From Heterodontus francisci (taxonomy: Eukaryota): a stretch of 64,000 nucleotides of DNA. The stretch lies in assembly GCF_036365525.1 (NCBI RefSeq), contig NC_090371.1:115954388-116018387 (forward strand). The letters run 5' to 3'. Position numbers and translations under genes: made by a program. Positions 2,778-53,348 of the stretch are shown here, one piece after another. How positions within the stretch are numbered: the stretch's first letter is position 1; every line of letters starts with the position of its first letter. A model generated the notes under the pieces. It searched no databases, was not told the origin of the DNA, and saw nothing but the letters and a program-made list of their open reading frames with translations.

Positions 2778-3119
2778 GGCGGCACAGTGGCGCAGTGGTT
2801 AGCACCGCAGCCTCACAGCTCCAGTGACCTGGGCTCAATTCTGGGTACTGCCTGTGTGGAGTTTGCAAGTTCTCCCTGTGTCTGCATGGGTTTTCTGCAG
2901 GTGCTCCGGTTTCCTCCCACAGCCAAAAGACTTGCAGGTTGGTAGGTAAATTGGCCATAATAAATTGCCCCTAGTATAGGTAGGTGATAGGGACAGGTGG
3001 GGATGTGGTAGGAATATGGGATGAGTGGAGGATTAGTATAAATGGGTGGTTGATGGTCGGCACAGACTCGGTGGGCCGAAGGGCCTGTTTCCGTGCTGTA
3101 TCTCTAAACTAAACTAGGA
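2778..3119 (+). mobile_element. V-SINE, full length
   Basis: Same structure as 202-552, with a (CTAAA)n tail. Imperfect TSD TACTGCAG (2770-2777) / TACTACAG (3120-3127). Confidence 0.92.
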
Positions 3120-3267
3120 TACTACAGTTCAGCAAGTTTTAATTTTAAAAGGATGACGACCAGATGCTCTCAGCACTGTCCACAGTTCATCGCAGGGCAT
3201 GACGGTTAATATGGTCAAGCTTTAGCATGAGGCTAATTTTTGGTAAAGCCATTACTGTCTTACAAAG

Positions 3268-4645
3268 TGGAGAGTATTCCATTGTGTTCCTGATTTATGC
3301 CCCGTAGATTGTGGACAGGCTTTAGGGCATCAAAAAGTGATTTACTCGCTGAAGAATCCCCAGCCTCTGACCTGCTCTTTTAGCCACAGTATTTATATGG
3401 CTAGTCAAGTTTCTGGTCAATGGCAACCCTCAGGATATTGATGGTGGGGGATTCACCAATGGGAATGCGGTTAAATGTCAAGAGGAAATGGTTCTCTCTT
3501 GTTGGAGATGGTCATTGTCTGGTACTTGTGTGGTGTGCATGTTACTTGCCACTTATCGGCTCAAGCCTGAATATTGTCCAGGTTTTGCTGCGTATGGGCA
3601 TGGACTGTTTCAGTATCTGAGGAGTCACGAATGGTACTGAACTCTGCGCAATCAGCGAACATCCCCACATCTGACGTTATATTCCACCGATGCACAGTGG
3701 CAGCAGTGTGTACCGTCTACAAGATGCACTGCAGCAACGCACCAAACCTGCGACCTCTACCAACTAGAAGGACAAGGGCAGCAAATGCATGGGAACACCA
3801 CCACTCACAAGTTCCCCTCCAAGTCACACACCATCCTGACTTGGAACTATATCGCAGTTCCTTCACTGTCGCTGGGTCAAATTCCTGGAACTCCCTCCCT
3901 AACAACACTGTGGGTGTACTTACCTTACATGGACTGCAGCGGTTCAAGAAGGCAACTCACCACCACCTTCTCAAGGGCAATTAGGGATGGGCAATAAATG
4001 CTAGCCTAGCCAGTGACGCCCACATCCCATGAATGAAAAAAAAAATCACTTTGCTGATGATTGAGAGTAGACTGATAGGACGATAATTGGCTGGTTTGGA
4101 TTTGTACTGCTTTTTGCAGACAGGACATACCTGAACAATTTTCCATATTGTTGGGTAGATGCCAATGTTGTAGTTGTACTGGAATAACTCAGCGAAGGGC
4201 GCAGTTAGGTCTGGAGCACAAGTCTTCAGTATTAAAGCTGGGATGCTGTCAGGGCCCATAACCTTTGCTGTATCCAGTGCGTTCAGTCATTACTTGATAT
4301 CACATGGAGTGAATCGAATTGGCTGAAAATTGGCATCTATGATGGTGGGGACCTTCGGAGGCAACCAAGCTTGATCATCCACTTGGCACTTCTAACTGAA
4401 GATGGGTGAAAATTCTTCAGCCTTGTCTTTTGCACTGACCAGCTGGGCCCACCCATCATTGAGGGTGAGGATGTTTGTGGAACCTCCTCTTCCTCCAGTT
4501 AGTTGTTTAATTGTCCACCACCATTCATGACTGGATGTGGAAGGACTGCAGAGTTTTGATCTGATCTATTGGTTGTAGGATCGCTTAGCCCTGTCTACAG
4601 CATACTGTTTCCACTTATTAGCATGCATATAGGTGCCTGGTTGTC
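3268..4645. mobile_element. Family A LINE pieces: minus 3268-3680, plus 3' end 3683-4045 with A-rich tail, minus 4046-4645
   Basis: Minus-strand peptide GPDSIPALILKTCAP...PANYRPISLLSIISKV. The plus-strand piece ends GGGCAATAAATGCT...CCCATGAATGAAAAA. Confidence 0.85.
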
Positions 4646-6640: not shown

Positions 6641-6963
6641 TAAAAATTTGGTTCTGACATAAATATCTTCTGATTCAATGGACTTATTCTGTCCTGTAAA
6701 TGATCTGAGCATCATCATTTTATGGGAGTTGACTTACACAGCTCTGCATCTATTTTTCCCGTAACTCCATGTTTGAATCCCTCCAATCGGGTTTCCATTC
6801 CTGTCATAGTACCGAAACCGCTCTTACCAAAGTCACAAATAACATCCTCTGTGGCTGTGACAAAGATAAACTTTCCTTCCTCATCCTTGTCGACTCGTCT
6901 GCAGCCTTTGATATGGTTGACCATACCATCCTTCTTCAATGCCTGTCCACTGTCATCCAGCTG

Positions 6964-9900
6964 TCACTGGATTAGTAACCCAGAGACCCAGGGTATTGCT
7001 CTGGGGACATGGGTTTGAATCCCATCACAGCAGAAGGTGGGAGTTGAATTCAACTAATAAATCTGGAATCTGAAAAAAAAAGCCAGTCTAATGATGGCCT
7101 TGAAACCATTGTCGATTATTGTAAAAACCCATCTGGTTCACTAATATCCTTTTGGGAAGGAAATCTGCCTCCTTATCTGGTCTAGCCTACATGTGACACT
7201 AGACCCACAGCAAGGTTGTTGGCTCTTAAATGCCCTCTGAAATGGCCTGGCAAGCCTCTCAGTTGCATCTAACCACTACGAAGTCAATATGGAATGAAAC
7301 CGGATGGACTACCCGGAATTCGACCTCGGCACCGGAAACGACAATGGCAAACCCAGCCCTGTCAACCCTGCGAAGTCCTCCTTACTAATATCTGGGGGGC
7401 TTGTGCCAAAGTTGGGAGAGCTGTCCCACAGACTAGTCAAGCAGCAGCCTGACAGTCATACTCACGGAATCATAACTTACAGACAATGTCCCAGACACTG
7501 CCATCACCATCCCCTGGTATGTCCTATCCCACTGGCAGGACAGACCCAGCAGAGGCCGTGGCACAGTGGTATACAGTCAGGAGGGAGTTTCCATGAAGTC
7601 TCACGGCATCAGGTCAAACTTGGGCAAGGAAATCTCCTGCTGATTACCACCAATCGCACCCCCACTCACCCCCCGCACCCCTCCCGACAGCTGATGAGTC
7701 AGTACTCCTCCAGGTTGAACAGCAGGAAACACTAAGGGTGGCTAAGATGCAAAATGTACTCTGGGTGGGGGACCTCAATGTCCATCACCAAGAGTGGTTC
7801 AGTAGCATCACTACTGACTGAGCTGGTCGACTCCTAAAGGACATAGGTGCTACACTAGGTCAGTAGCAGGTGGTGAGGGAACCAACAAGAGGGAAACATA
7901 TACTTGACCTCATCCTCACCAATCTGCCTGCCGCAGATGCATTTGTGCATGACAGTATTGGTAGGAGTGACCACCGCACAGTCCTTGTGAAGATCAAGTC
8001 TCGTCTTCACATTGAGGATACCCTCCATCGTGTTGTGTGGCACGATTACTGTGCTAAATGGGATAGATTTTGAACAGATCTAGCAATGCAAAACTGGACT
8101 TCCACGAGGCACTGTGGGCCATCAGCAGCAGCAATATTGAACTTAACCACAATCTATAATCACATGGCCCAGCATATCCCCCACTCTACTATTACCATCA
8201 AGCCAGGGGATCAACCCTGGTTCAATGAACAGTGTAGGAGGGCATGCCAAGAGCAGCACCAGGCATGCCTCAAAATGAAGTGTCAACCTGTTGAAGTTAC
8301 AACCCAGGACTACTTGCATGCCAAACAACATAAGCAACATGCAATAGACAGAGCTAAGTGATCCCATAGTCAATGGATCAGATCTAAGCTCTGCAGTCCT
8401 GCCACATCCATTCATAAATGGTGGTGGACAATTAAACAACTAACTGGAGGAGGTGCCTCCACAAATATCCCCATCCTCAATGATTGGGGAGCCCAGCACA
8501 TTAGTGAAAAAGATAATGTTGAAGCATTTGCAACAAGCTTCAGCTAGAAGTGCCGAGCTGATGATCCATCTCGGCCTCCTCCTGAATTCCCAGCATCACA
8601 ACTGCCAGACTTCAGCGAATTCGATTCACTCCGCGTGATATCAAGAAATGACTGAGGGCACTGGATCTGCAAAGGCTATGGGCCCTGACAACATTCCGGC
8701 AATAGTACTGAAGACCTGTGCTCCAGAACATGCTGCACCCCTAGCCAAGCTGTTACAGTCCAGCTACAACACTGGCATTTACCTAGCAATGTGGAAAATT
8801 GCCCAGGTATGACCTGTAAACAAAAAGCAGGACAAGTCCAACCCAGCCAATTACCGCCCCATCTGTCTACTCACAATTATCGGTAAAGTGTCTGCAGAGC
8901 CTCATCGACAGGACTGTGGCTGCCTGCAACGAATTTGACTTAACCATCAGCCTCAAGAAAACGAACATCATGGGACAGGATGTCAGAAATGCTCCATCCA
9001 TCAATATCAGCGATCATGATCTGGAAGTGGTTCAAGAGTTCACCTACCTAGACTCAACTATCACCAGTAACCGGTCTCTCGATGCAGAAGTCAACAAGTG
9101 CATGGCAAAGGTTTCCACTGCTATGTCCAGACTGGCCAAGAGGAGGTGGAAAAATGGCGCACTGACACGGAACACAAAAGTCAGTGTTTCAAGCCTGTGT
9201 CCGCAGTACCTTGCTCTACGGCAGCGAGGCCTGGACAACGTATGTCAGCCAAGAGCGATGTCTCAACTCATTCCATCTTCGCTGCCTCGAAGATTCCTTG
9301 GCATCAGGTGGCAGGACCATATCTCCAACGCAGAAGTCCTCGAAGCGGCCAACATTCCCAGCATATACACTCTACTGAGCCAGCGGCGCTTGAGATGGCT
9401 TGGCCATGTTAGCCGCATGGAAGATGGCAGGATCCCCAAGGACACATTGTACAGCGAGCTCGCCACTGGTATCAGACCCACCGGCCGTCCATGTCTCCGC
9501 TTTAAAGACGTCTGCAAACGCAACATGAAGTCCTGTGACATTGATCACAAGTCGTGGGAGTCAGTTGCCAGTGATCGCCAGAGCTGGCAGACAGCCATAA
9601 AGGCGGGGTTAACGAGTGGTGAGTCGAAGTGACTTAGCAGTTGGCAGGAAAAAGGACAGAAGTGCAAGGGGAGAGCCAACTGTGTAACAGCCCCGACAAC
9701 CAATTTTATCTGCAGCGCCTGTGAAAGAGACTGCCACTCTAGAATTGGCCTTTATAGCCACTCCAGGCACTGCTCCACAAACCACTGACCACCTCTAGGC
9801 GCTTACCCATTGTCTCCCGAGATAACGAGGCCAAAGAAGAAGATGGAAGGTGTCATCAACAGTGCTATCAAGCGGCACTTGCCTAGCAATAACCTGCTCA

Positions 9901-11170
9901 CTGATGCCGAACTTGGGTTCCTCCAGGGCCACTCAGCTCCTGACCTCATTACAGCTATGTTTCAAACATGGACACAAGAGCTGAACTCAAGAGGTGAGGT
10001 GAGAGTGACTGCCCTTGATATCAAGGCAGCATTTTATCGAGTATGGCATCAAGGAGTTCTATGGTTCTAAGGAGCCCCAGCAAAACTGGAGTCAATGGGA
10101 ATCAGGGCGAAAACTGTCTGCTGGTTGGAGTCGTACTTAGAACAAAGGAAGATGGATGTGGTTGTTGGAGGTCAATCATCTCAGCTCCAGGACATCACTG
10201 CAGGAGTTCCTCAGGGTAGTCTTCTAGGCCCAACCATCTTTAGCTGCTACATCAATGACCTATTTTCAATCAAAAGGTTAGAAACGGGGATATTCGCTGA
10301 TGATTGCACAGTGTTCAGCACCATTTCCGACTCCTCAAGATACTGAAGCAGTCCATGTAGAAATGCAGCGAGAGCTGGACAATATCCAGGCTTGAGCTGA
10401 TAAGTGGCAAGTGCCAGGCAATGACCATCTCCAACAAAAGAGAATCTAACCATCTCCCCTTGACATTCAATGGCATTACGATCGCTGAATCTCCCACTAT
10501 CAACATCCTGGGGCTACCATTGACCAGAAACTGAAATGGAGTAGCCATATAAATACCATGGCTACAAGAGCAGGTCAGAGGCTGGGAATCCTGTGGCAAG
10601 CAACTCACCTCCTGACTCCCCAAAGTCTGTCCACCATCTATAAGGCACAAGTCAGGAGTGTGATGGAATACTCTCCACTTGCCTGGATGAGTGCAGCTCC
10701 AACTACACTCAAGAAGCTCAATATCATCCAGGATAAAACAGCCCGCTTGATTGTCACCCCACCCACAAACATTCACTCCCTCCACCACTGACGCACAGTG
10801 GCAGCAGTTTGTACCATCTACAAGATGCACTGCAGCAACACAAAAAGGCTCCTTAGATAGCACCTTCCAAACCCACAAACTCTACTACCTAGAAGGACAA
10901 GGGCAGCAGATGCTTTGGAACACCACCACCTGCAAGTTCACCTCCAAGCCACACACCATCCTGACTTGGAACTATATCACCATTCCTTCACTGTTGCTGG
11001 ATCAAAATCTTGGAACTCCCTTCCTAACAGCACTGTTGGTGTACCTACCCCACATGATTGTAGCGGTTCAAGAAAGCAGCTCACCACCATCTTCTCAAGG
11101 GCAATTAGGGATGGGAAAGAAAATGCTGGCCTGGCCAGCGATGCCCACATCCCATGAACGAATGAAAAAA
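6964..11170 (+). mobile_element. Near full-length CR1-group LINE (family A): tRNA-like head, one decayed EN-RT ORF, no ORF1
   Basis: TSD AGCTG at 6959-6963 / 11171-11175. APE endonuclease motifs (NIWG, EPTRGKHILDLILTN, SDH) and RT motifs (ALDIKAAF, GVPQGSLLGP, FADD). A-rich tail. About 3.25 kb once the nested RTE is removed. Confidence 0.88.
8891..9842 (+). mobile_element. RTE-clade LINE, 5'-truncated, nested in the family A LINE
   Basis: ORF 8916-9632 (FTYLDSTI, RLRWLGHVSRMEDGRIPK) and (GAA)n tail. The host reads AAAGTG|ATGGAAGG across the insert. Confidence 0.92.
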
Positions 11171-12027
11171 AGCTGGATGGGACTGTCCTCACCTGGTTCC
11201 ATTCTTACCTATCTAATCGTAGCCAGGGAATCACTTGCAATGGCTTCTCTTCCTGCTCCCACACCTTTATCTTTGGTGTCCTCCAAGGATCTATCCTTGG
11301 TTGCCTCCTATTTCTTATCTACATACTACCCCTCGGTGACATCATCCGAAAGCACTGCATTGGGTTTCACATGTACGCTGATGACACTTAGCTTTACCTC
11401 ACCACTACCTTTCTCGACTCCTCCACTGTTGCTAAACTATCAGTCTGCTTATTCGGCATCTATATTTGGATGATCAGAAATTTCCTCCCATTAAATATTG
11501 GGAAGACTGAAGTCATTGTTTTTAGTCCCTGCTCCAAGCACCATTCCCTAGCCACAAACTCCGTCCCTCTCCCTGAGAGCAGTCTGAGATTAAGCCAGTC
11601 TCTTTACAATCTTGGTATTGCATTTGACTCCGAGTTGAGCTTACGACCTCATATTCGCACCATCACTAAGGCAGCCTATTTTGCACCTCTAACATCGCCT
11701 GATTTCTCCCCTGTTGAAACCCTCATTCATGTCTTCGTTACCTCTACACTTGAGTATTCCAACATACTCCTGGCTGGTTTCCCACATTTGACCCTCTATA
11801 AACTTGGGTTCATTCAAAACTCTGCTCTTTGTGTCTTAACTTGCACCAAGTCCTGTTCCGCTTTCATCCTGTGCTCGCTGACCTACATTGGCTCCCGGTC
11901 AAGCAACATCTTGATTTTAAAATTCTCATCCTTGTTTTCAAATTCCTCCGTGGCCTCCTCCCTACCTCTGTAATATGTTCCAGCCCTACAACATTCCTAG
12001 ATATCTGCGCTCCTCTGGATCTGGCCT

Positions 12028-13789: not shown

Positions 13790-15095
13790 TGTGGTATATA
13801 AAACGGCAAGTGCCAAAAGCTTTTATTGTGACTGCGTGGGTTTCCGCCGGGTACTCCGGTTTCCTCCCACAGCCAAAGACTTGCAGGTTGATAGGTAAAT
13901 TGGCCACTGTAAATTGCCCCTAGTGCAGGTAGGTGGTAGAAGAATGGTGGGGATGTGGTAGGGAATATGGGATTAATGTAGGATTAGTATAATTGGGTGG
14001 TTGTTGTTGGCATGGACTTGGTGGGCTGAAGGGCCTGTTTCAGTGCTGCATCACGAAATAAAAAATAAATAAATGACATCGGAGGTCAAGCCAAAGTGTA
14101 CAAAAGTATTTCTCTAAAAATCTCCCTATTCATAAAAAGTCTGTTCTTTCTTGTTCTTTCAAATTTGTCTATCCCGACACATGCGTTTCACACAACAATC
14201 TTTAAAGTGTTCAGGTCCTTTATGGTATATGCGCAAATTGCTATTGGCTGTTTGTCTGGTGTCTGCTAGTTCCTTGGATGATGTTGTTAGTGTTCCTTCT
14301 TTGGGGAATGTTGTTGCTGTGGTGAGTGTTACTGCTGTGGTCATTGTTGCTGCTCATCTGTTGTGCTGGTTGGAGTACGGTTAACTTCTGGGACTGATGG
14401 TCATTCAGTTCCTTGTTCAGTTGGCGAACTCAGATCTGTCTCATCAGCCATCTGCTGTGAAGGAGCAGCTTCTCCAGCTGAGTGTAGATGTCTGCAGTTA
14501 CGACAATAGATCTGATTGTTCATCTTCATTTTGTATGATCTTCATGCAAGTCCCAAGTTGCGACGTAAAGATGGCCTGAAATCATCAAGGACATACCCGT
14601 TGCTGTACTGGGCATACAGAAAAGAAGTGACCACCCAAGATGGCATCTTGTACAAAGGGACTAGAGTCATTGTCGCTAAAGAAATGAGAAAAGAGATGCT
14701 GAAGTGTGTCCACATAAGCCATCAAGGATTCGAGCCTCGTCTGAGGAAGACAAGAGAAGTGCTCTACTGACCAAACATGAACAATGAGATTAAGGACCAC
14801 TTCAGCCAGTGCAGTACTTGCAATGAACATCAAGCTGAGGAAGCTGGAGAGCCCCTCATGACTCATGATATCCCAGACAGACTATGAATAAAGCTTGGAG
14901 CAGACCTCTTCATTCCCACTGGGACTGATTGTTCGGTCACAGTTGATTAACATTTGGACTACTGGGAGTTACACCACGAGTGAAGAATTCAGACACTTTA
15001 TGAACAATTGGAAAATTCAGCACTACACATCATCTCCACACTATCCCCAGTCAAATGGAAAGGCTGAGGTAGCAGTGAAAATTGCCAAAACATCC
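13790..15095. mobile_element. Ty3/Gypsy remnant: short LTR, PPT and integrase C-terminus on minus (13790-~14565); integrase H2C2 and core on plus (~14570-15095)
   Basis: Plus strand: QDGILYKGTRVIV...HISHQG...CSTC and HYTSSPHYPQSNGKAEVAVK. Minus strand: RNCRHL-type and KGPEHFKD-type C-terminal motifs, then purine tract AATAGGGAGA. Confidence 0.72.
13833..14073 (+). mobile_element. V-SINE, 5'-truncated
   Basis: End of the V-domain plus CR1-type tail and (AAAT)n. Possible TSD TGAC. Confidence 0.88.
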
Positions 15096-15114: not shown

Positions 15115-15915
15115 ACACTTCACTGTTGCTGGGTCAAAATCTTGAACTCCATAATAACAGCATAGTGGAAGTACCTTGACCACATGGCCTGTGGCAGCCA
15201 AAAAGAAAGGTTTAGGGCAATTAGGGATGGGCAATAAATGCTGGCCTTGCTGTTGGAATGTACTCCCAGGTCAGAGGCACCTGCAATAAATATTAAATGA
15301 ATAACTAATAACATATAATTCTAGCCAGCAATGAAATGTTTTCAAGGCACCATGGGACTCAGCTAACTTGACCACATTCCTTACAAGGGATGATTCACAT
15401 AAATTCAGCACAGTCTAATCAAGTGGCCTCTAGCCGATGCCCTCATGAAATGTCGACAAAGATGGAATGCTGACAAAGATACCAGCCTGTAACAAGGTTA
15501 AGATAAGATGTTATGTATACATAAGGCCCAAGGATGGTGAATCAGGGGATCTGGAAGACATCATGTACGCATGAGTAACCCGCTAGCTGTCGAAGAGCAT
15601 GAGCTGATCACGCAGTCCCCCAATGTCTAGTAACCCATTTCATTGGTTCTACTAATCAATGTATATAATCTATAATCACTATGATTGGACCATGTCCAGC
15701 CGGCATGGGCTGAGTAACTGTTTGAAACTGTATAAGTATTGATGATTTTCCTTTGTTCGGTGAAGAGGAATCTGGATTGCCCAGTGGCCTGCTCCCCGCC
15801 GGCGTAACCCAATAAACTGTTCGACATTTGGAGCAGACCCGAGTGTCGAGTGATTCTTTCAGATTCATTCCCACTAACACTTGCCAACAATGCATACATC
15901 CTGAGAATTAATTTT
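15115..15915 (+). mobile_element. Family A LINE 3' end, split by a solo LTR
   Basis: GGGCAATTAGGGATGGGCAATAAATGCTGGCCTTGC on the left continues as CAACAATGCATACATCC after the LTR. Confidence 0.75.
15251..15879 (+). mobile_element. Solo LTR (629 bp) with 5-bp TSD
   Basis: TGTTGG...CTAACA termini, TSD CTTGC at 15246-15250 / 15880-15884, TATAAG at 15731, AATAAA at 15811. Confidence 0.85.
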
Positions 15916-25524: not shown

Positions 25525-26315
25525 TTTTTTAATTCGCTCATGGGATATGAATGTTGTTGGAAAGGCCAGCATTTATTGCCTATCCCTAATTGCTCTTGAA
25601 AAGGTGGTGGTGAGCCGCCTTCTTGAACCGCTGCAGTCCATGGGATGTAGGTACACCTACAGTGCTGTTAAGAAGAGAGTTCCAGGATTTTGATCCAGCA
25701 ACAGTGAAAGAATGGCGATATAGTTTCAAGTCAGGATGGTGTTGGAGGGGAAATTGCAGGTGGTGGTGTTCCCATGCGTCTACTGCCCTTGTCCTTCTAG
25801 GTGGTAGAGGTTGCGGGATTATCGAAAGAGCCTTGGTGAGTTGCTGCAATGCATCTTTGACCTCGTCAGCAGATGTGGCCTCTTCAGACTACTAGAAAAG
25901 ATTGGATGCCCACCAAAGCGACTAAGTATCATCACCTCATTCCATGACAATATGAAAGGCACAATTCAACATGGTGGCTCCTCATCAGAGCCCTTTCCTA
26001 TCCTGAGTGGCATGAAACAGGGCTGTGTTCTCGCACCCACACTTTTTGGTACACACTGCTGCCACTGTGTATCGGTGCTGGAGGGCATAAATGTTTAAGG
26101 TGGTGAATGGGTGCTGATCAATTGGACTTCTTTGTCCTGGATACTGTTGAACTTCTTGAGTGTTTTCTGAAGCTGTACTCATCCAGGCAAGTGGAGAGTA
26201 TTCTATACACTCCTGGCTTGTGCTTGTAGATGGTGAACTGGCTTTAGGGAGACAGGAGATGAGTTACTTGCAGCAGAATTCCCAGCTTCTGTCCTGCTCT
26301 TGAGGCTGCAGTTTT
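25525..26315 (-). mobile_element. Family A LINE 3' fragment
   Basis: Family A tail on the minus strand and peptide HSFTVAGSKSWNSL...KKAAHHHL. Confidence 0.85.
25855..26049 (+). mobile_element. Internal RTE fragment with no tail and no TSD
   Basis: Near-identical to ~27255-27449 (FDLVSRCGLFRLLEKIGCP...KQGCVLAPTLF). Confidence 0.88.
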
Positions 26316-26485: not shown

Positions 26486-27155
26486 CAACCCATTCATTGG
26501 AAAACTGAACAGATCGGATGCAACCCTGGTTTGTCAACAATGTCAACAATGAAGAGTAACATTAAGCAGGGTGTAAAATTAACATTCCACACAATCCTGC
26601 TTGGCAAGTTAGGTTAAACTCACCCCCAATGTCACTGAGATACAAATGAGTGCAGATGGAATCTCTCAATCTTCCTGTTCGCAGTACCCTGTGCACACAG
26701 TTCACTCATATAATGGTGATAAAGACTAGTAGCATTCCAGACTTTCAGGAAGTTAGCTATATTTTTTATTGCTACAATCAACATTATAAATTTGGAAGTT
26801 GATATCGGCATTTTCTGTTTGAGGTTTCTGAGGAGGAGGACGAAGAATTTAAAAACAGTGATGCAAGGCAAGTTCACTTCCATCAGAACCCATTACTCAC
26901 ACCCACCCTTACTCACCAGAACAGATACACAGATCCAGGTACACCTATCTGGCATTGCTTGAGAACAACTACCTTTGCAGGGTTCACTTCACTAGGGTGA
27001 CAATGACTGAGTCTGCTCGAATTTGACCATAAACAACACTGACCACAGGGATGGAATTCCGAGTGACAATGGAGGTCCTTGTAGCACTGAACCTTTATGC
27101 CTTGGGCTCACTCAAGTTATCACAGGGGTTAACAACAGCATCAGTCAATTAAAAG

Positions 27156-28588
27156 ATCGACCGTTGACATGCTGTTCTCCCTTCGTCAGATACAGGAGAA
27201 ATTCCATGAACAACAGATGCCCCTCTACATTGCTTTCATTGATCTCACCAAAGCCTTTGACCTCGTCAGCAGATGTGGCCTCTTCAGACTACTAGAAAAG
27301 ATTGGATGCCCACCACGGCTACTAAGTATCATCACCTCATTCCATGACAATATGAAAGGCACAATTCAACATGGTGGCTCCTCATCAGAGCCCTTTCCTT
27401 TCCTGAGTGGCGTGAAACAGGGCTGTGTTCTCGCACTCACACTTTTTGGGATTTTCTTCTCCCTGCTGCTTTCACATGCGTTCAAGTCCTCTGAAGAAGG
27501 AATTTTCCTCCACACAAGATCAGGGGGCAGGTTGTTCAACCTTGCCCGTCTAAGAGCGAAGAGCAAAGTACGGAAAGTCCTCATCAGGGAACTCCTCTTT
27601 GCTGACGATGCTGCTTTAACATCTCACACTGAAGAGTGCCTGCAGAGTCTCATCGACAGGTTTGCGGCTGCCTGCAATGAATTTGGCCTAACCATCAGCC
27701 TCAAGAAAATGAACATCATGGGGCAGGACGTCAGAAATGCTCCATCCATCAATATTGGCGACCACGCTCTGGAAGTGGTTCAAGAGTTCACCTACCTAGG
27801 CTCAACTATCACCAGTAACCTGTCTCTAGATGCAGAAATCAACAAGCGCATGGGAAAGGCTTCCACTGCTATGTCCAGACTGGCCAAGAGAGTGTGGGAA
27901 AATGGCGCACTGACACGGAACACAAAAGTCCGAGTGTATCAGGCCTGTGTCCTCAGTACCTTGCTCTATGGCAGCGAGGCCTGGACAACGTATGTCAGCC
28001 AAGAGCGACGTCTCTATTCATTCCATCTTCGCTGCCTCCGGAGAATACTTGGCATCAGGTGGCAGGACCGTATCTCCAACGCAGAAGTCCTCAAGGCGGC
28101 CAACATCCCCAGCTTATACACACTACTGAGTCAGCGGCGCTTGAGATGGCTTGGCCATGTGAGCCGCATGGAAGATGGCAGGATCCCCAAAGACACATTG
28201 TACAGCGAGCTCGCCACTGGTATCAGACCCACCGGCCGTCCATGTCTCCGCTTTAAAGACGTCTGCAAACGCGACATGAAATCCTGTGACATTGATCACA
28301 AGTCGTGGGAGTCAGTTGCCAGCGTTCGCCAGAGCTGGCGGGCAGCCATAAAGATGGGGTTAAAGTGTGGCGAGTCGAAGAGACTTAGTAGTTGGCAGGA
28401 AAAAAGACAGAGGTGCAAGGGGAGAGCCAACTGTGTAACAGCCCCGACAAACAAATTTTTCTGCAGCACCTGTGGAAGAGCCTGTCACTCTTGAATTGGC
28501 CTTTATAGCCACTCCAGGCGCTGCTTCACAAACCACTGACCACCTCCAGGCGCATATCCATTGTCTCTCGAGATAAGGAGGCCAAAGA
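27156..28588 (+). mobile_element. Young 5'-truncated RTE-clade LINE
   Basis: Perfect 13-bp TSD AGTCAATTAAAAG at 27143-27155 / 28589-28601 and a GAA-type tail. Confidence 0.95.
27169..28494 (+). CDS. RTE reverse transcriptase, C-terminal 441 aa (uninterrupted but N-truncated)
   Basis: Motifs FIDLTKAFD, GVKQGCVL, LLFADD, FTYLGS, LLYGSEAW, RLRWLGH, C-terminal CSTC. The stop falls just before the C-terminus seen in the 60.5 kb copy. Confidence 0.85.
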   Translation: MLFSLRQIQEKFHEQQMPLYIAFIDLTKAFDLVSRCGLFRLLEKIGCPPRLLSIITSFHDNMKGTIQHGGSSSEPFPFLSGVKQGCVLALTLFGIFFSLLLSHAFKSSEEGIFLHTRSGGRLFNLARLRAKSKVRKVLIRELLFADDAALTSHTEECLQSLIDRFAAACNEFGLTISLKKMNIMGQDVRNAPSINIGDHALEVVQEFTYLGSTITSNLSLDAEINKRMGKASTAMSRLAKRVWENGALTRNTKVRVYQACVLSTLLYGSEAWTTYVSQERRLYSFHLRCLRRILGIRWQDRISNAEVLKAANIPSLYTLLSQRRLRWLGHVSRMEDGRIPKDTLYSELATGIRPTGRPCLRFKDVCKRDMKSCDIDHKSWESVASVRQSWRAAIKMGLKCGESKRLSSWQEKRQRCKGRANCVTAPTNKFFCSTCGRACHS

Positions 28589-29544
28589 AGTCAATTAAAA
28601 GCACTCTCTTGCCTCAAGCAGGTCACTGATGTGCTGTTCATCCACTTCCTCTTGGAAAAGCAGCAGTAGAATAAGAGGGCACTGCAGTTTTTCTGTGCTT
28701 CAGGATTCCCCAAAGCTTAGAGCATTAGGAATAGCATTCATCTGACCTTTAGCTCTGTACACACAATGCCATAGTGTTCATGAACCAGAAAGGCTTCTGC
28801 TCAGTCAATGTGCAAACTGTCAATACTTGCCAAGCATTCGGCATGATTATTTTAAGACAATCCTATCTACCCATGTTATTTAAAGAAAAAGGGAGAGCAA
28901 AGAGTGATGACTCCGAGCAAACTAAGACGATCCATTTTAACCCTGGATCGTGGGATCCTGTAGATCGGTAAAAACAAAGTGAAGGCAGATACAAGACCTT
29001 CACCTATGTAGTAAATGCACCAGCTGTCCTGTTCACTTTGCAGTGGCCCAATACTAATATTTACCTCTGCTTTATCTCAATTAATAGGGAGATCATCCTT
29101 TGATCTGTACCATTAGAAGTTAATTCACTGGATAAAGTTGAACCAACATATTTTACTATAAATAATCTGAGTGCATATCTTCACTGAACTTTAACTCAAC
29201 ATTTTCCCTTAGTGAGTGTCCATGGCGTGTGTCTTCTGGAAGCTATCCTAGTCATTCTTCTAGGTACTTCCATAGTGGGGGAAGGAAATATGGTGACTTT
29301 CTGTAGGACATCACTTGTGATTGAAGTATCCATATACTTCCTTGTGGTAGATCATGAGTTGGTACTGCAACTAATTCTGCGATGGACCCTGCTGCAGTAG
29401 CTGGCTAGTACCTCCTCCATTCTCCTCCATTCCATTCCTCCCTGTATGCACTCACTCCCTGTGATTTCAAAAGGCTTCTTCAAAATAATTCAAAGGACTT
29501 GACATTTCTACATCCTCTGACTATGTGGGCTTGCTCCCTCCTGT

Positions 29545-33336: not shown

Positions 33337-34109
33337 GTGGGGTCCATCCTGCTGGTGGGGCAGGACATACCCAGGGATGGTGATGGTTGTGTCTGGGACA
33401 TTTTCTGCAAGGTGTGATTCCATGAGTATGACTATGTCAGGCTGTTGCTCGACTGGTCTGTGGGATAGCTCTTCCAACTTTATCACAAGCCCCCAGATGT
33501 TAATAAAGAGGACTTTGCAGGGTCGACAGGGATGGGTTTGCCTGTGCCATTTCCGATGCCTAGGTCGATACTGGGTTGTCTGTCCAGTTTCATTCCTTTT
33601 CTTCGACTTTGTAGCAGTTTGATACAACTGAGTGGCTGGCTAGGCCATTTCAGAGGGCAGTTAAGAGTCAACCACATTGCTGTGGGTCTGGAGTCACATG
33701 TAGGCCAGACCAGGTAAGGATGGCAGTGTAAGGCGGAGGTAGATAGATTCTTGTTAGGCAAGGGAATCAAGGGTTATCAGGGGCAGATGGGAGTGTGGAA
33801 TTCAAAACACAAACAGATCAGCCATGATTTTATTGAATGGTGGAGCAGGCCCAAAGGGCCGAATGGCCTGCTTCTGCTCCTATCTCGTATGTTCCTTCCC
33901 TAAAAGACATAAGTGAACCAGATGTTTTTTTTTACAACCATCGACAATGGCTTCATGGTCACCACTCGATTAGCATTTCATTCCAGATTTATTAATTGAA
34001 TTCAAGTTCCACCATCAGCCGTGGTGGGATTCGAACCCATGTCCCAGAGCATTAGCCTGGGGCTCTGGGTTACTAGTCCAGTGACATTACCATTACGCCA
34101 CCACCTCCC
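33337..34109 (-). mobile_element. Family A LINE 5' end with complete tRNA-like head; nested CR1 3' fragment at ~33728-33893
   Basis: Minus strand begins GGGAGGTGGTGGCGTAATGGTAA (A box)...GGGTTCGAATCCC (B box) and runs into NIWGL...QQPDIVILMES (APE endonuclease). Confidence 0.88.
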
Positions 34110-34479: not shown

Positions 34480-35640
34480 AAGCAAAAATGAAAGTGCACA
34501 GAATTGGAGGTAACCTTGTGATATGAGCTGATAATTGATTGGGAGGTCAAAGACAGAGAGTAAGAAGAATGTGATCCACAGATGCTGTCAGACCTGCTGA
34601 ATATTTACAGCACTTTTTGTTTTTATTTCAGAATTCTAGCATCTGCAGTACTTTGCTTTTGTGTTCTAATGTGATCGTTGTCTGTTTGGCCTCAATGTGA
34701 CAAGTGCTGTTTCCCAGGGATCTATACTGGGGCCTCAACTTTTCACCATATACAACAATGACTTGGATGAAGGAATAGAGAGTTGTATAGTCAAGTTTGC
34801 AGATGGCACTAACATAGGAGGCGAGTAAAATGGGAGCTGGAAGCTATAAAGGGAGATAGACAGATCACACAAGTGGGAAAAACTATGGTAGATGGAGCTT
34901 AATATGGGGAAGTGGGAGCTTATCCACGTTGGATCCAAAAAAGACAAATCATACTTTTTAAATGGTGAGAAATTAAGAGCTTTAGCGGAGTAAAAAAATT
35001 TAGGTATCATTATATACAAATCACTCAAGGCTTGTGCACTGATACAATAAGTAATCAACAGTCTAATGGAAGGAGGGCTTTTTATCTCCATGGGACTGGA
35101 ATACAAAGGGAAGGAAGTGATGCTTCAGTTGCACACAGCCTTGATCAGACACCATCTGGAATGCTGCATTCAGTTTTCGGTGGCGCACGTCAGGAAGGGT
35201 ATATTTGTCTTGGAGAGCTACAGGTATGATACAGAGGTTTAAGAGGTTAAAGTATGAGGATAGGCTGCATAAACTTGGCTTGTATTCCTTTGACTTTAAA
35301 AGGCTAAGGGAAAAGCGCATGGGGGCATCTAAGCCGAGGGGACACTGTTTCAGAATCAGAGGTCTTCCATTTAAGAAGGAAATGAGGAGGAATTTCTTCT
35401 CTCAAAGAGTCGTTAATCTTTGGAGTTCTCTTCCCCAGAGAGCAGTGGAGGCCGGATCATTGAATATATTCACTGTTGAGTTAGACAGATTTTTAATCTA
35501 CAAAGGAATCAAGGGTTATGGGAGGCAGGCAGGAAAGTAGAGTTAAGACCATAATCAGATCAGCCATGATCTTTTTAAATGATGGAACCAACTTGAGGGG
35601 CCAAATGGCCTGCTTCTGCTTCTATTTCTTATGTTCTAAT
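34480..35640 (+). mobile_element. Decayed CR1 3' part(s)
   Basis: PQGSILGPQLF-type and KFADGT-type motifs, then RRNFFSQRVVNLWSSLPQRAVEAG and a CR1 tail. Confidence 0.82.
34577..34667 (+). mobile_element. 91-bp Penelope-type terminal-repeat fragment (no ribozyme core)
   Basis: Homologous to 16855-16902 and to the reverse complement of 56472-56555. TSD AATGTGATC at 34568-34576 / 34668-34676. Confidence 0.8.
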
Positions 35641-37301: not shown

Positions 37302-38255
37302 GCAACAACAACAACTTATGTTTATATAGCACCTTTAACATAATAAACCGCCCCGAGGCACTTCACAGGAGGATTACTAAACAAAATATGACATCAAGAC
37401 ACAAAGGGAGATATGAAGTCAAATGACCAAACGCTTGTCAAAGACATAGATTTTAAGAAGCCTCTTAAGGAGGAAGGTGAGGTGGAGATGCGGAGGTGTA
37501 GGGAGGGTATTGCAGAGCTTAAGGTCTGGGCAACTGAAAGTGCAGCCACTGACGATGGAGCAGTTAAAATCAGGGATGCACAAGATGTCTTGGAGGGTTG
37601 TGGGGCTGGAGAAGATTACAGAGGTAGGGAGGGGTGAGACCATGGAGGAATTTGAAAACAAGGATGAGAATTTTAAAATCATGACGTTGCTTGACCGGGA
37701 GCAAATGTAGGTCAGCGAGCACAGGGTGATAGAGGAATGGGACTTGGTGTGAGTGAAGACACAGGGAGTTGAGTTTTAGATTACCTCAAATTTACAGAGG
37801 GCAGAATATGGGAGACCAGCCAGGAGTGTTTTGGAATAGTCTAAAGATAATGGAAGCATGAATGAGAGTTTCAACAGCAGATGAGCTGGGCAAAGTCGGG
37901 CAATGTTGCAGAGGTGGAAATAGGCAGTCTTAATGATGTCATGTATATGAGGTCAGAAGCTTATCTCGGGGAAAATGTGACACCTAGGTTGCAAATAGAC
38001 TGGCTTAATCTCAGACAGTTGCCAGGGAAAGGGATGGAGGCAGTAGCAAGGGAATGGAGTTTGAAGTGGAGACCAAAAACAATGGCTTCAGTCTTCCCAG
38101 TATTTAATTGGGGGAAATTTATGCTCATCCAGTATTGGGTGTCAGATAAGTAGTCTGATAATTTAGCAACAGTGGAAGAGTCAAGAGAATTGGCAGTGAG
38201 GTAGAGCTGAGTGTCGTCAGCATACATATGAAAAGTAACGCTGTGCTTTCGAATT
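37302..38255 (-). mobile_element. L2 LINE 3' part
   Basis: Peptide MYADDTQLYL...QLNTGKTEAIVF and a (TTG)n tail on minus. Confidence 0.88.
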
Positions 38256-38375: not shown

Positions 38376-38584
38376 GCCAAAGACTTGCAGGTTGATAGGT
38401 AAATTGGCCATTATAAATTGCCCCTAGTATAGGTAGGTGGTAGGGTAATATAGGGACAGGTGGGGATGTGGTAGGAATATGGGAGTAGTGTAGGATTAGT
38501 ATAAATGGGTGGTTAATGGTCGGCACAGACTCGGTGGGCCGAAGGGCCTGTTTCAGTGCTGTATCTCTAAATCTAAATCTAAAT
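38376..38584 (+). mobile_element. V-SINE 3' half
   Basis: GCCAAAGACTTGCAGGTTGATAGG through the tail, ending (CTAAAT)n. Confidence 0.88.
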
Positions 38585-39769
38585 AATATATTACATTAAA
38601 TTTCAAAGTATTGTGTGGAGCAGGTATTTATTTAGTTATGCTTATGATATCCCTCAGCAACATGGAGATACCTCCAATATATTGACAGAACAGGCTGATA
38701 GAACTCATTCGCAGTAAAGCCACTACAGCTCCAGGCACCACAACAGCTCTACGAGACTCATAGAAACTGTCAACTACCACTGTTCAATCTTCCTGTGAAG
38801 TGATTCCTCGAGGCCAAGCATGGAAAATCAAAAATTATCACAATCTTCCCACATTGAAAATGGAGTCTTGAAACCCTCTGTCAACAGGGCCAAGATGATA
38901 CTTAAGATGCAGGACCGACAATTCATTGAAGTAAAATTTCTGAACAGAGGCCAAGAGTTTCTGCTTTGGGCGCAATCAGTGATCCGGGCTCAAATTGCAT
39001 TCAACATTCCATTTGTTTTCAGAAGTGATTTCTTTCCTTAAGTTTCCCCTCAAACTCATTTGCATATCAGGGAACATAAATTCTTCCATAAACCAGTGCA
39101 ATTGGGCAGAATTTTAGAACTTATTTTTAATTTTGCATTAAAAAAATTATATTTGATATGTGTAAGAGTGGCAACCTGGTGCAATATTATTAATACAGCT
39201 GAAAATGTTTTTTTACTCATGAAGCATTTTTAGTCAGTGTCTAGTCCATCCCCTGTGAGTAACACAATTTTAAATAACTAAAACGGATGTTAAAAAAGCA
39301 ATACAGAACCATTTACTAGTTACATTGGTGTACAGTAATCAGTTTCTTAGTAAATTGAAAAGAAAAATGTATAAACTCTGAAAAAGTGCCTATTAGTGCC
39401 CTTGCACCTAAAACAAATCCCCCCTGTAACTCTGGCAACAAATAGTGTGTGTTGCAGGAACTGTTATTGGGACAATGCAAGAGCAACAGCAGACCCCATC
39501 CTGTATGCATTGGTGTTGGTGATAGAAATGTAAAAGAAAATTGGAAAAAAAAATCAGTGTATTGGATTAGTAAAGCAAAAGATAAACAGAATTCCCCAAA
39601 AAATATGAGGCAGGAGGGGGAAAAGAGAAAAAATAAATGGGAAGTTCTGTATGGATTGCTGCTAATACATTTTTTCTTACCAAAAAAAGGCTGACAGTTG
39701 TGCAACTTGCTCCCATTATTATTCGCTAAATCAAATGCTTTCATGGATTAGGTAAACACAGCTCATTTA

Positions 39770-40018
39770 ACTTTGCGAGTTTAAACAGGTTGGGGCTCTT
39801 TTCTTTGGAAAAGAGAAGATTGAGAGGTGACCATTTAGAGGTTTTTAAAATTATGAAGGGGGTTGAAAGAATATATACAGAAAAGATGTTTCCACTTGGG
39901 GGGCATCCACAACTATGGGCCATAAATATAAAATAGTCACTAATAAATCCAATAAGGAAGGTGAGACTGTGGAACTCACCATCACAGGGAATGGTTGAGG
40001 TGAACAGCATAGATGAAT
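39770..40018 (+). mobile_element. CR1 3' fragment
   Basis: Peptide LGLFSLEKRRLRGD...VFKIMKG. Confidence 0.75.
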
Positions 40019-42560
40019 TTGCAACCATCTTCAGCCAGAAGTACTGAGTGGATGATTCATCTTGGCCTCCTCCTGAGGACCCCAGCTTCACAGTTGCCAG
40101 TCTTCAGCCAATCTGATTCATTCCACGTGATATCAAGAAATGGCTGAAGGCACTGGATACTGCCAAGGTATGGGCCCTGACAACATTCCGGCAATAGTAC
40201 GGAAGACTTGTGCTCCTGAACTAGCTGCACCCCTAGCCAAGCTGTTCCAGTACAGCTACAACACAGGCAATGTGGCAAATTGCCCAGGTATATCCTGTGC
40301 ACAAAAAGCAGGACAAATCCTACCTGGCCAATTACCGCCCGATCATTCTACTCCCGATGATCAGCAAAGTTATGGAAGGGGTTGTTGACAGCGCTATCAA
40401 GCGGAACTTGCTCAGCGAGAACATGCTCACTGATGCTCAATTTGGGTTCTTGACATCAAGGCAGCATTTGACTGAGTATGGCATCAAGGAGCCCGAGCGA
40501 AACTGGAGTCAATGGGAATCAGGGGACAAACTCTCCACTGGTTGGAGACATACCAAGCACAAAGAAAGATGGTTGTAGTTGTTGGAGGTCAATCATCTCA
40601 GTTCCAGGACATCACTGCAAGAGTTCCTCAAGGTAGTGTCCTGGGCCCAACCATCTTCAGGTGCTTCATCAATGAACTTCCCTCCATCATAATGTCAGAT
40701 GTGGGATGTTCATTGATGATTGCATAATGTTCAGCACCAATCATGGCTCCTCAGATAGTGAAGCAGCCCATGTTCATATGCAGCATAGAGTCATAGAGTC
40801 ATACAGCACAGAAACAGGCCCATCGGACCATCGTGTCTGTGCCGGCCATCAAGCACCTACCTATTCTAATCCCATTTTCCAGCACTTGGCCTGTAGCCTT
40901 GTATGCTATGGCGTTTCAAATGCTCATCTAAATACTTCTTAAATGTTGTGATGGTTCCTGCCTCTACCATCACTTCAGGCAGTGTGTTCCAGATTCGAAC
41001 CACACTCCGGGTGAAAATTTTTTTTTTCCTCAAATCCCCTCTAAACCTCCTACCCCTTACCTTAAATCTATGCCCACTGGTTATTGACCCCTCCGCTAAG
41101 GGAAAAAGTTTCTTCCTATCTAATCTATCAATGCCCCTCATAATTTTGTATACCTCAATCATATGCCCCCTCAGCCTACTCTGCTCTAAGGAAAAGGACC
41201 CTAGCCTTTTCAGTCTTTCTTCATAGCTGAAACACTTCAGCCCAGGCAACATCCTGGTGAATCTCCTCTGCACCCTCTCCAGCGCAATCACATCCTTCCT
41301 GTAGTGTGGCGATCAGAACTGTACACAGTACTCCAGCTGTGGCTTAACTAGCGTTTTATACAGCTCCATCATAACCTCCCTGCTCTTATATTCTATGCCT
41401 CGGCTAAGAGAGGCAAGTATCCCATATGCCTTCCTAACCACCTTATCTACCTGTGCTGCTGCCTTCAGTGATCTATGGACTGGTATACCAAGGTCCCTTT
41501 GACCTTCTGTACTTGCTAGGGTCCTACCATCCATTGTATATTCCCTTGCCTTGTTAGTCCTCCCAAAATGCATCACCTCACACTTCTCAGGATGAAATTC
41601 CATTTGCCACAGCTCCACCTATCATACCAGCCCATCTATATCGTCCTTTAATCTAAGGCTTTCCTCCTCACTATTTACAACACCACCAATTTTCGTGTCA
41701 CCTGTCAACTTACTGATCATACCTTCAATATTCAAGTCTAAATCAATAATTGTACACTACAAACAGCAAAGGTCCCAGCACTGATCCCTGTGGTGCACCA
41801 CCGGTCACAGGCTTGCACTCGCAGAAACAACCTTCGACCATCACCCTCTGCCTCTCCCATGGACCTTCTTAACCAATCTCCCATGCGGAACCTTATCAAA
41901 AGTCTTACTGAAGTCCATGTAGACTACATCAATTGCCTTACCCTCATCTACACATCTAGTCACCTCCTTGAAAAATTCAATCAAGTTAATGAGACACAAT
42001 CTCCCCCTGACAAAGCCATGCTGACTATCCCTCATTAATCCCTGCCTTAGGAGTAAGATGGAATACTCTCCAGTTGCCTGGAGGAGTGCAGTCTAACAAC
42101 ACTCAAAAGCTCAACACCATCCAGGACAAACCAGCCTGCTTGATTGGCACCACATCCACAACCTTCACCATTCACTCCCGTCACCACCGACACACAGTGG
42201 CAGCAGTGTGTACCATCTACAAGCAATTCACCAAGGCTCCTTAGACAGCACCTTCCAAACCTGCGACCTCTACCATCTAGAAGGACAAGGGCAGCAGATA
42301 TATGAGAACACCACCACCTGCAAGTTCCTCTCCAAGCCACACAACATCCTGACTTGGAACTGTATCACTGTTCCTTCATTGTCACTGGGTCAAAATCCTG
42401 GAACTCCCTTACTAACAGCACTGTGAGTTTAGCTACATCCCAAGGACTGCAACAGTTCAAGAAGGCAGCTCACCACCATCTTCCGAAGGACAATTAGGGT
42501 TGGGCAATAAATGCTGGCCTAGCCATCAATGCTCACATCCCACGATTGAATAAAAAAAAC
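40019..42560 (+). mobile_element. Family A LINE RT region, split by a minus-strand CR1
   Basis: ANYRPII...KVMEGVV and VPQGSVLGPTIF at 40019-40785; 3' end and A-rich tail at 42048-42560. Confidence 0.85.
40786..42047 (-). mobile_element. CR1 (HER1-like) LINE 3' part
   Basis: Peptides QHGFVRGRLCLINLIEFF and ALERVQRRFTRM, with a (CTCTATGA)n tail. The 3' end matches the V-SINE tails. Confidence 0.9.
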
Positions 42561-53052: not shown

Positions 53053-53348
53053 ATAGAATTGCAAAGAGTGTACAGCACAGAAACAAGCCATTCAGGCCAA
53101 CTGATCCATGCCAGTGCCCATGCTTCACATGACCCTCTTTCATCCCCTACTTCATTGAAACTTATCAGCATAAACTTGTATTCCTTTCTCCTCAACTATG
53201 TATCTAGCTTCCTCCTTAAATGCATCAAGGCCAGTTTCCTCAACTAATTATTTTGGCAGTGAGTTACATATTCTAACCAGTCTTGGGGTCAAGAAGTTTC
53301 TCCTAAACTCCCTAATGATTTAATAGTGACTATCTTATACTTATGGCT
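53053..53348 (-). mobile_element. CR1 3' end hosting the Gypsy element (continues at 59280-59330)
   Basis: GTGACTATCTTATACTTATGGC|...|CAAGTGGAAACATC is collinear with the CR1 at ~39885-39945. Confidence 0.7.

Follow-up and report, generated by a model that had tools for sequence, protein, structure and literature searches.

How a LINE comes to begin inside a tRNA-like sequence, and which RNA polymerase would then transcribe it, are the questions raised by positions 6964-11171 of a 64,000-nt stretch of the Heterodontus francisci genome (contig NC_090371.1; hereafter the window). By the working rule stated in PMC10886601 and PMC5786205, LINEs are Pol II-transcribed, coding and autonomous, and SINEs Pol III-transcribed and non-coding. 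A first-pass annotation, made from the letters of the window alone, had described the locus as a CR1-group LINE with a tRNA-like head, possibly transcribed by Pol III.

The copy in the window

The locus is a dead, decayed copy of the elasmobranch Zenon (CR1-Zenon) LINE. It is 8.6% divergent from the majority sequence of the young family and contains stops, frameshifts and four TTTT runs, all decay-derived. Its 5′ end corresponds to family nt 27, so that 26 nt at the start, with the A box, are lost. It does start inside the tRNA-like sequence, as first noticed: the B box GGTTTGAATCC occupies 7012-7022. The first APE motif (L-T-N-I-W-G, Asn codon 7387-7389) does follow about 420 nt past 6964. 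The size of about 3.3 kb given at that time fits the element (3.25 kb) but not the span (4.2 kb), which is inflated by an RTE insertion. Likewise, the copy was called TSD-bounded, and a short duplication is present, but it consists only of the 4 nt GCTG, visible as an extra stretch when aligned to the majority sequence of the L2 host. The features are as follows.

6960-6963, plus strand: left TSD GCTG (right copy 11172-11175); the host is an older L2 ORF2
6964-7030, plus strand: what is left of the tRNA-derived head (family nt 27 to about 93), without A box, B box at 7012-7022
7031-7264, plus strand: 5′ body common to the LINE and a companion SINE of about 390 nt; the SINE head ends in CAGTT (7260-7264)
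7242-7244, plus strand: AUG299, followed by GCC-UAG in most copies; TGG replaces UAG in this copy
7251-8889, plus strand: single long ORF, 5′ part (basic leader, APE endonuclease, RT start), broken here
7294-7296, plus strand: AUG354, invariant and out of frame; its 46-codon frame overlaps the beginning of the endonuclease; candidate translation start
8890-9842, plus strand: nested 5′-truncated RTE-type LINE insertion of 953 bp, foreign to the Zenon element
9843-11108, plus strand: single long ORF, 3′ part (RT with FADD motif, C-terminal region, TAG stop at 11106-11108), broken here
11096-11171, plus strand: 3′ tail, the last 67 family nt and a short poly-A (11165-11171), common to the companion SINE
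33340-34109, minus strand: second 5′ fragment with complete A and B boxes and an older-type head, ending within the endonuclease
33727-33892: foreign insert of 166 nt in the second 5′ fragment
62638-63264, plus strand: 5′-truncated family fragment
42049-42559, 40017-40785, 25525-26302, 3265-4632, 1938-2186, 60304-60505 and 15118-15250: further 5′-truncated family fragments

The estimate of at least eight family pieces is borne out: BLAST finds 16 pieces, distributed over about 10 places in the window. The minus-strand copy at 34109 indeed has the same head with both boxes, joined to the same ORF once the 166-nt insert is removed, and ARAGORN calls a tRNA-Thr(AGT) within it (34016-34108). An HDV-ribozyme match at 7690-7754 (E 0.87) lies within the ORF and was treated as chance. 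A predicted stem-loop in the 3′ tail is not significant by itself (z −1.4).

The tRNA-derived head is the 5′ end of the family

In the family, the A box TGGCGTAGTGG lies at +11 and the B box GGTTCGAATCC at +75. The 5′ end is sharp: from +1 to +21 the majority base is found in 58-91 of 93 copies, and from −1 upstream no base exceeds 40. When copies were picked by the endonuclease alone, 20 of 29 had the head and the other nine were 5′-truncated at scattered points. The head-ORF junction has 5,167 exact matches in the genome, and 25/39 and 15/20 loci in two sets are colinear and full-length. Neither an ORF1 nor any other extension upstream of the head was found in the genome copies. The 5′ end, the junction and the endonuclease-selected copies support the view that the head belongs permanently to an autonomous LINE, and the tRNA-derived A/B-box head is the 5′ end of the family. 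ARAGORN predicts tRNA-Thr in 8 of 27 loci; the Rfam tRNA model gives no match to the head. The A box, the B box and the +1 position are conserved across subfamilies and from galeomorph to squalomorph sharks; in the stingray consensus the B box is degenerate, which counts against transcription by Pol III.

Family identity and what is new

The family is the catalogued elasmobranch Zenon of PMC13343379, which was first flagged in the whale shark (bioRxiv 10.1101/443036). In that catalogue, six elasmobranch consensuses from five species (CarCar_Zenon-1, RhiTyp_Zenon-1, ScyCan_Zenon-1, HypSab_Zenon-1, SquAca_Zenon-1 and SquAca_Zenon-2) are near-identical by eye to the family here over their first 400 nt and share the head, and the head-ORF junction is also present in five other species. 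Like the family here, the five Zenon-1 consensuses are 3.24-3.31 kb long, lack ORF1 and end in poly-A, a tail described there as unique to Zenon among CR1-group elements (PMC13343379). The absence of ORF1 claimed for the window copy is therefore real but not a novelty, since it is the rule for Zenon. The main text of PMC13343379 never mentions tRNA, promoter, polymerase, Pol III or start codon; new with respect to it are the tRNA head, the avoidance of T-runs, the missing AUG and the companion SINE.

In a quick RT tree, which contains no labelled Zenon RT, the family stands apart from shark CR1, RTE and L2 and is joined to invertebrate single-ORF elements (SH-aLRT 94). Features of canonical, HER1-type CR1 were not found: there is no esterase-type ORF1, and the RT is 33% identical to that of shark CR1, on a separate branch. 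A profile-free search of cluster representatives returned short close fragments and 25-39% relatives only.

The head was likely captured, in an early elasmobranch, from a SINE sharing the tail. The hagfish and coelacanth Zenon consensuses, as far as their first 400 nt, have no such head at the start. Searches with the head gave no match at E < 3 in invertebrate relatives (160 loci) and none in viral contigs. At ORF-bearing relative loci, a B-box-like word was seen upstream in 4 of 80 and a relaxed ARAGORN call in 7 of 80.

Avoidance of T-runs

Depletion of sense-strand TTTT had been suggested as a check for Pol III read-through, and many Pol III terminators as evidence against it. The first of these outcomes was obtained: the sense strand of the majority (3,289 nt) contains no TTTT against 4.5 expected (P 0.0097), and TTT occurs 8 times against 22.1 expected (0/3000 shuffles). 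Under synonymous shuffling, TTT in the ORF is found 4 times against 12.8 expected (0/3000); the absence of TTTT from the ORF alone is not significant (P 0.073), so that the T-run signal stands on TTT and on stricter nulls. Codon junctions able to form TTT do so in 0/27 and 0/24 cases in Zenon; the figures are 7/40 and 7/36 for RTE and 16/60 and 8/28 for CR1. Runs of A, C and G have normal frequency. The controls, three LINE families from the same single genome, each as a partial majority, have TTT near expectation: 23 against 23.5 in RTE, which has equal T content, 35 against 38.1 in CR1 and 19 against 20.2 in L2. TT dinucleotides are depleted also in RTE (z −3.2) and CR1 (z −2.4), compared with z −3.4 in Zenon, a point against the Pol III reading. 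Among the related intact ORFs taken from metagenome and MAG contigs, all 80 contain TTTT. Phe is used at 18 of 975 codons, and 12 of these fall at the 13 columns where Phe is conserved in relatives.

Against a Pol III reading, TATTT stands at nt 57 of the commonest subfamily; it is a minimal terminator in T+ SINEs (PMC8466645). A 3′ T-run inherited as terminator was considered and rejected: T4-6 precedes the A-run in 11 of 49 full-length copies, shows no correlation with divergence (rho 0.04), and may stem from elongation after insertion.

The ORF and its translation start

The majority of 25 copies has one frame of 975 codons, all other sense frames being at most 123 codons. Pfam detects APE (PF14529, PF03372) on genome copy L041 and RT (PF00078, RVT_1) on genome copy L039. 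Changes common to two older copies are 60 synonymous and 40 replacement, compared with 449 and 1322 among private changes; the older master is defined by these two copies only, a search for the older subfamily having given young copies. Judged from these codon changes, purifying selection acts on the APE-RT frame between masters.

No in-frame AUG was found in the ORF upstream of the endonuclease. Upstream AUGs are conserved in fair Kozak context, and AUG354 is invariant in the family and likewise in the published consensuses. The preferred, still tentative, route would be initiation at AUG354 and entry into the long frame by a −1 shift. There is neither a canonical slippery heptamer nor a special RNA structure in support of this shift; folding after nt 440 is unremarkable as a frameshift stimulator (z ≤ −2 in 17 of 73 windows; z +0.4 in the older copy L076), and a by-eye tally of substitutions in the two-frame overlap favours neither frame. 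A non-AUG codon near AUG354 is the second choice and might also serve. A master with AUG354 brought in frame by one extra A was rejected (6 against 7,912 matches), which argues against transcriptional slippage.

The third choice, read-through of UAG from AUG299, is improbable. Of 99 copies, 94 keep AUG299-GCC-UAG-CAA in frame, as do three published consensuses. However, in the Squalus Zenon-1 consensus a TAA follows in frame six codons further along and the frame is shifted, as it also is in the whale-shark consensus (by eye). TAG-to-GAG variants in 9 of 99 copies were dismissed as a sign of selection, since they show no linkage and CCTAG is also a T>G hotspot at other sites within the element.

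Tail and companion SINE

The family ends in poly-A, and AATAAA occurs both 46 nt before the end and at the end itself; this arrangement is equally compatible with Pol II and counts against the Pol III reading. AATAAA is also tolerated internally, at nt 119 and 343, and none occurs in the partial RTE and CR1 majorities, a weak difference. The companion SINE, short and non-coding like SINE2 elements, is made of Zenon's own head and tail; its existence implies that Zenon protein is able to act in trans on the shared tail. Family-wide TSDs barely exceed chance (41 copies, mean 1.37 non-A bases against 1.00 ± 0.14; the maximum of 500 permutations was 1.39).

Transcription and expression

From these sequence features, Zenon is probably an autonomous LINE transcribed by Pol III from its head and translated non-canonically. 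TFIIIC would bind the internal A and B boxes and Pol III would initiate at the 5′ G, read through the whole 3.3 kb because terminators have been purged from the element, and halt at a T-run in or past the tail. The uncapped RNA would then be translated non-canonically, and Zenon protein would copy it by target-primed reverse transcription, like other LINEs. A fuller version is favoured somewhat less firmly: that elasmobranch Zenon is transcribed by Pol III end to end, captured its SINE head before the shark-ray split, had its 2.9-kb ORF recoded, even in Phe usage, for terminator purging, is translated uncapped without AUG, and as a LINE-SINE hybrid would also mobilise a SINE of its own head and tail. 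Length counts against Pol III, since SINEs are 100-700 nt (PMC10886601) and a 3.3-kb transcript is far longer. In public runs guessed to be from RNA, contigs cover the element; they show no start, strand, cap or polymerase.

The best-surviving alternative, although rather unlikely, is that the SINE-derived 5′ part is, or adjoins, an internal Pol II promoter and that the RNA is capped and polyadenylated as in other LINEs, which are described as Pol II elements (PMC10886601). T-runs would then be avoided owing to RT slippage, U-rich decay or premature processing, or as a relic of a Pol III phase. The poly-A tail with its two AATAAA and the TATTT at nt 57 agree with Pol II, and capped RNA with scanning ribosomes could explain the conserved upstream AUGs. 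However, the deficit is specific to T-runs and to the sense strand and is missing in the three co-resident LINE families, and the boxes and +1 are conserved across subfamilies and from galeomorph to squalomorph sharks.

Less likely still is mixed expression, in which Pol III RNA is the template only and Pol II transcripts, from host read-through or rare capped copies, supply the protein in trans. T-run purging would be explained without translation of uncapped RNA; family fragments are plentiful in the RNA-guessed assemblies, and the companion SINE shows that the protein can act in trans on the tail. However, the 29 endonuclease-selected copies include no alternative 5′ end, the in-frame-AUG variant is rare (6 against 7,912), and purifying selection on the ORF of head-bearing masters suggests that each master is copied by its own protein.

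Finally, SINE insertion is known to form composite elements (Metulj subfamilies, PMC4016481) and the head-bearing SINE is abundant (6,962 exact junction matches), but a head arising by chance SINE insertion, or as an assembly or consensus artefact outside the LINE proper, is highly improbable and is refuted by the 5′-end profile, the endonuclease-selected copies and the junction counts (5,167 matches, with the colinear full-length loci), neither a SINE tail nor poly-A lying between head and ORF and the junction being identical in five other species.

If the Pol III reading is true, a family with thousands of near-full-length copies fuses LINE and SINE and breaks the working rule. It would provide a natural 3.3-kb Pol III messenger, a direct test of how vertebrates translate uncapped, AUG-less RNA, and a compact retrotransposon of one promoter and one ORF, the ORF recoded by a constraint of transcription. 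If Pol II is responsible, the finding reduces to an unnoticed SINE-derived 5′ end of a catalogued family.

Comparison with known systems

Invertebrate single-ORF LINEs (those named being from amphioxus, Hydra and Sycon) are 42-49% identical to Zenon over the RT region, and many have a basic N-terminal leader, as here. In the basic-leader relatives a Met start is predicted 26-37 residues before the first APE motif, whereas shark Zenon has no such AUG; the related ORFs with DNA contain TTTT in 80/80, unlike the shark Zenon majority.

tRNA-derived SINEs (SINE2) combine an A/B-box head with a LINE-type tail, both also found in Zenon. However, SINEs are 100-700 nt long and encode no protein, whereas Zenon has 3.29 kb and a selected 975-codon APE-RT frame. 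The 5′ part of Zenon may resemble the Meta domain of MetaSINEs, 66 bp that follow a tRNA-Thr-like head. The head of MetaSINEs (PMC4824008) is of tRNA-Thr, the same call as for the Zenon head. In T+ SINEs, the T-run lengthens at the T/A boundary as the tail shortens, as in Zenon (PMC8466645).

Among LINEs, one precedent is RTE-1_DAn (Repbase, RTE clade), which is reported in passing, in a single sentence of PMC5786205, to contain a tRNA-like sequence. Outside the SINE class, Cassandra, Helenus and Ajax (TRIMp3; PMC10886601) have a Pol III promoter derived from a small RNA, as proposed for Zenon; unlike Zenon, they are short, non-autonomous LTR elements that encode no protein.

Copies of the Zenon LINE in the window

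Members of the Zenon LINE (CR1-Zenon), a single-ORF retrotransposon with a tRNA-like head, account for 16 BLAST pieces in about 10 places, in line with the first-pass annotation, which had described an abundant family with at least 8 pieces. The genome measures 6.0 Gb, and published relatives of the family all come from sharks and rays.

Features of the window
6964-11171 (+): decayed Zenon copy, ending in a short poly-A at 11165-11171
7012-7022: B box of this copy
7387: first APE motif of this copy
8890-9842: RTE fragment (953 bp) splitting this copy
33340-34109 (-): second Zenon copy, 5' fragment starting at 34109, A and B boxes both present, called tRNA-Thr by ARAGORN
33727-33892: foreign sequence of 166 nt inserted into the second copy, within its 5' body
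8890-9842, 27151-28590, 60514-61971, 25855-26049: young RTE family
6800-6963, 11176-12006, 37583-38254: old L2-like family
202-549, 2782-3116, 13827-14074, 38376-38586, 57675-58026, 59689-59924: separate repeat of about 340 bp, probably a SINE
49607-50552, 53348-54289, 58253-59279: repeat of about 950 bp

The copy at 6964 had been read as beginning within tRNA-like sequence with a B box. The B box is there, but the A box is missing, because the copy starts only at nt 27 of the majority sequence. Complete A and B boxes, as first described, are indeed carried by the copy at 34109. The 6964 copy is 8.6% diverged from the young majority, contains stops and frameshifts, and lies in an older L2 ORF2. 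Its description as TSD-bounded holds in so far as a 4-bp duplication, GCTG, flanks it, but Zenon TSDs in general (0-5 bp) exceed chance just marginally.

Genome copies of the young RTE family are 97-98% identical, and at least two insertions of this family into Zenon copies are seen within the window. The insert at 33727-33892 is 75% like 35478-35634 (repeat listed as 35478-35636), and it may correspond to the 3' end of a canonical CR1 in the opposite orientation. The 340-bp repeat is presumably of the HE1/V-SINE type. The L2 label of the old family is our assumption from motifs and a long branch in an RT tree; first-look candidates number about 15,000 in the genome. By contrast, PMC13343379 reports galeomorph sharks to be without L2.

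The tRNA-like head as the 5' end of an autonomous LINE

The Zenon LINE is autonomous. The majority sequence of 25 copies (3,289 nt) has a 975-codon frame starting at nt 308, with no second sense frame longer than 123 codons, which bears out the initial reading of a LINE without ORF1, and APE and RT domains were found by Pfam on genome copies. Changes common to both older copies were 60 synonymous and 40 replacement, against 449 and 1,322 among private changes, a relative replacement/synonymous ratio of about 0.23 that comes from two old copies and may include some parallel CpG decay.

The head is part of this autonomous element. A head-plus-endonuclease query found 39 other loci, with the head matched in all 39 and full-length colinearity in 25; with a second head-containing query, 15 of 20 fetched copies were full-length, and two came from an older subfamily at 86%. 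Because both queries included the head, an endonuclease-only search was run as a control. Among its 29 non-self loci, 19 extend to nt 30 or further upstream, one has the head in rearranged form, and nine end at scattered points (nt 134-414) where the flanks appear, by eye, unrelated. Conservation begins sharply, in 93 copies, at a G ten bases upstream of the A box. These two results confirm the earlier claim that the head belongs to the element and is not a chance SINE insertion. Genome-wide, 5,167 exact matches were counted for the motif spanning the junction of head and ORF. ARAGORN called tRNA-Thr(AGT) on the head in 8/27 loci; the Rfam tRNA model gave no match there, the sole Rfam match being a weak tmRNA over the T-arm. 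Two full-length copies on unplaced contigs, L086 and L087, have a common upstream flank, probably through segmental duplication or as a haplotig, and L087 was excluded from most per-copy mutation counts.

Depletion of T-runs on the sense strand

Purging of T-runs is specific to the Zenon family relative to three in-genome controls. The sense-strand TTTT count of the consensus, a check proposed in the first-pass annotation, turned out depleted (0 versus 4.5 expected, P 0.0097; AAAA runs, 14). TTT occurs 8 times versus 22.1 expected, a value reached in 0/3,000 shuffles. With protein and codon usage held fixed, the ORF has 4 TTT versus 12.8 expected (0/3,000 shuffles), all of them Phe codons, and its lack of TTTT (0 versus 2.1) is not significant (P 0.073). 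Phe occurs just 18 times in the protein, and 12 of these residues fall in the 13 columns with Phe conserved among 19 relatives. Runs of A, C and G occur at normal levels. RTE, CR1 and L2 controls, each made by this procedure from 24-25 copies and spanning part of its element, have no TTT deficit (RTE, at the same 21% T, 23 versus 23.5 expected; CR1, 35 versus 38.1; L2, 19 versus 20.2). Codon junctions that make TTT are 0/27 and 0/24 in Zenon, 7/40 and 7/36 in RTE, and 16/60 and 8/28 in CR1. TTTT is present in all 80 related long ORFs from 160 metagenome/MAG loci, mostly near expectation. LINE ORFs of animal type are found intact on many GTDB 'bacterial' or 'archaeal' MAG contigs (L170-L249), which suggests that those assemblies are contaminated with host DNA.

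We consider it fairly probable, judging from these sequence features, that Pol III transcribes the whole LINE from its own head and that the uncapped RNA would then be translated non-canonically. Transcription by Pol II is compatible with the poly-A tail and AATAAA, which count against Pol III. Two further points weigh the same way: the commonest subfamily carries TATTT at nt 57, a minimal terminator in T+ SINEs according to PMC8466645, and TT dinucleotides are low also in RTE and CR1. At the 3' end, T4-6 precedes the A-run in 11/49 full-length copies. PMC8466645 describes a similar lengthening of the terminator in T+ SINEs, but the T-runs of these copies may have arisen by mutation after insertion. 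Copies end in T1-T6 and then a shrinking A-run, T plus A being about 10 in most. Separately, T>G is about 7-fold enriched at CCTA (3.8% versus 0.57% overall; family nt 305, 385, 1818 and 2184), mostly CCTAG and in unlinked copies.

Translation start

In the long frame, Met first appears at codon 285, downstream of the endonuclease. Relatives with a basic leader have a predicted start 26-37 residues upstream of the first APE motif; the shark Zenon frame also has such a leader, with an out-of-frame AUG at nt 354, 92 nt before that motif. AUG354 is kept in 49/54 copies and in 6/6 published elasmobranch consensuses (PMC13343379). A one-base variant setting it in frame has 6 matches versus 7,912, and thus the masters lack an in-frame AUG354. 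In the SquAca_Zenon-2 consensus (PMC13343379), a 14-nt gap brings it in frame by eye, among other gaps and in a possibly imperfect consensus. No slippery heptamer or special RNA structure for frameshifting was found. AUG354 with a -1 shift would be slightly favoured over a non-AUG start. Parallels to these putative routes are RTE, with its overlapping short ORFs, and R2, which initiates without an AUG. H. francisci copies retain AUG299 in frame, with GCC-UAG after it. Read-through from this AUG is unlikely to be general, because the Squalus and whale-shark consensuses (PMC13343379) do not preserve its frame.

Companion SINE and relation to known families

A companion SINE of about 390 nt joins the 5' ~321 nt of Zenon to its 3'-terminal 67 nt (6,962 exact junction matches).

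Companion SINE loci
L035, L045, L057, L303, L313, L375-L404 (G000)

The head start is reached in 16 of 30 loci examined, at least two junction variants exist, and the junction also occurs in contigs of sequencing runs from four other organisms. The commonest form carries young-LINE head diagnostics, so that head exchange or repeated deletion continues. In the simplest order of events, Zenon would have captured the head of a tail-sharing SINE, since no such head is present within the first 400 nt of the Zenon consensuses from hagfish and coelacanth (PMC13343379 supplement).

Zenon is a catalogued family whose architecture is apparently undescribed. A quick RT tree of 36 selected rows, with no labelled Zenon references, placed the element with invertebrate single-ORF elements, apart from shark CR1. 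Zenon elements of elasmobranchs, coelacanth and hagfish are described in PMC13343379 as ending in poly-A and having no ORF1. The supplement of that paper contains consensuses of the family for white shark, whale shark, catshark, dogfish and stingray, each opening with the head (species from row labels, first 400 nt), and the terms tRNA, promoter, polymerase, Pol III and start codon have no match in its main text. Titles, abstract openings and passages yielded no description of a Pol III-driven autonomous LINE, and Repbase, Dfam, subscription journals, figures or supplements may hold one; further related literature was also covered (PMC5499810; 10.1101/443036; PMC4016481; PMC7245038; PMC8466645; PMC4758252; PMC5804259). 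Pol III TRIMs are non-autonomous (PMC10886601), MetaSINEs have a tRNA-Thr head with partner LINEs given as unknown (PMC4824008), and CR1-Zenon tails in bivalves are tied to Meta and other SINEs (PMC11481361). The clades listed in PMC5786205 include no bipartite non-autonomous derivative from the CR1 group, the kind of element that the companion SINE represents.
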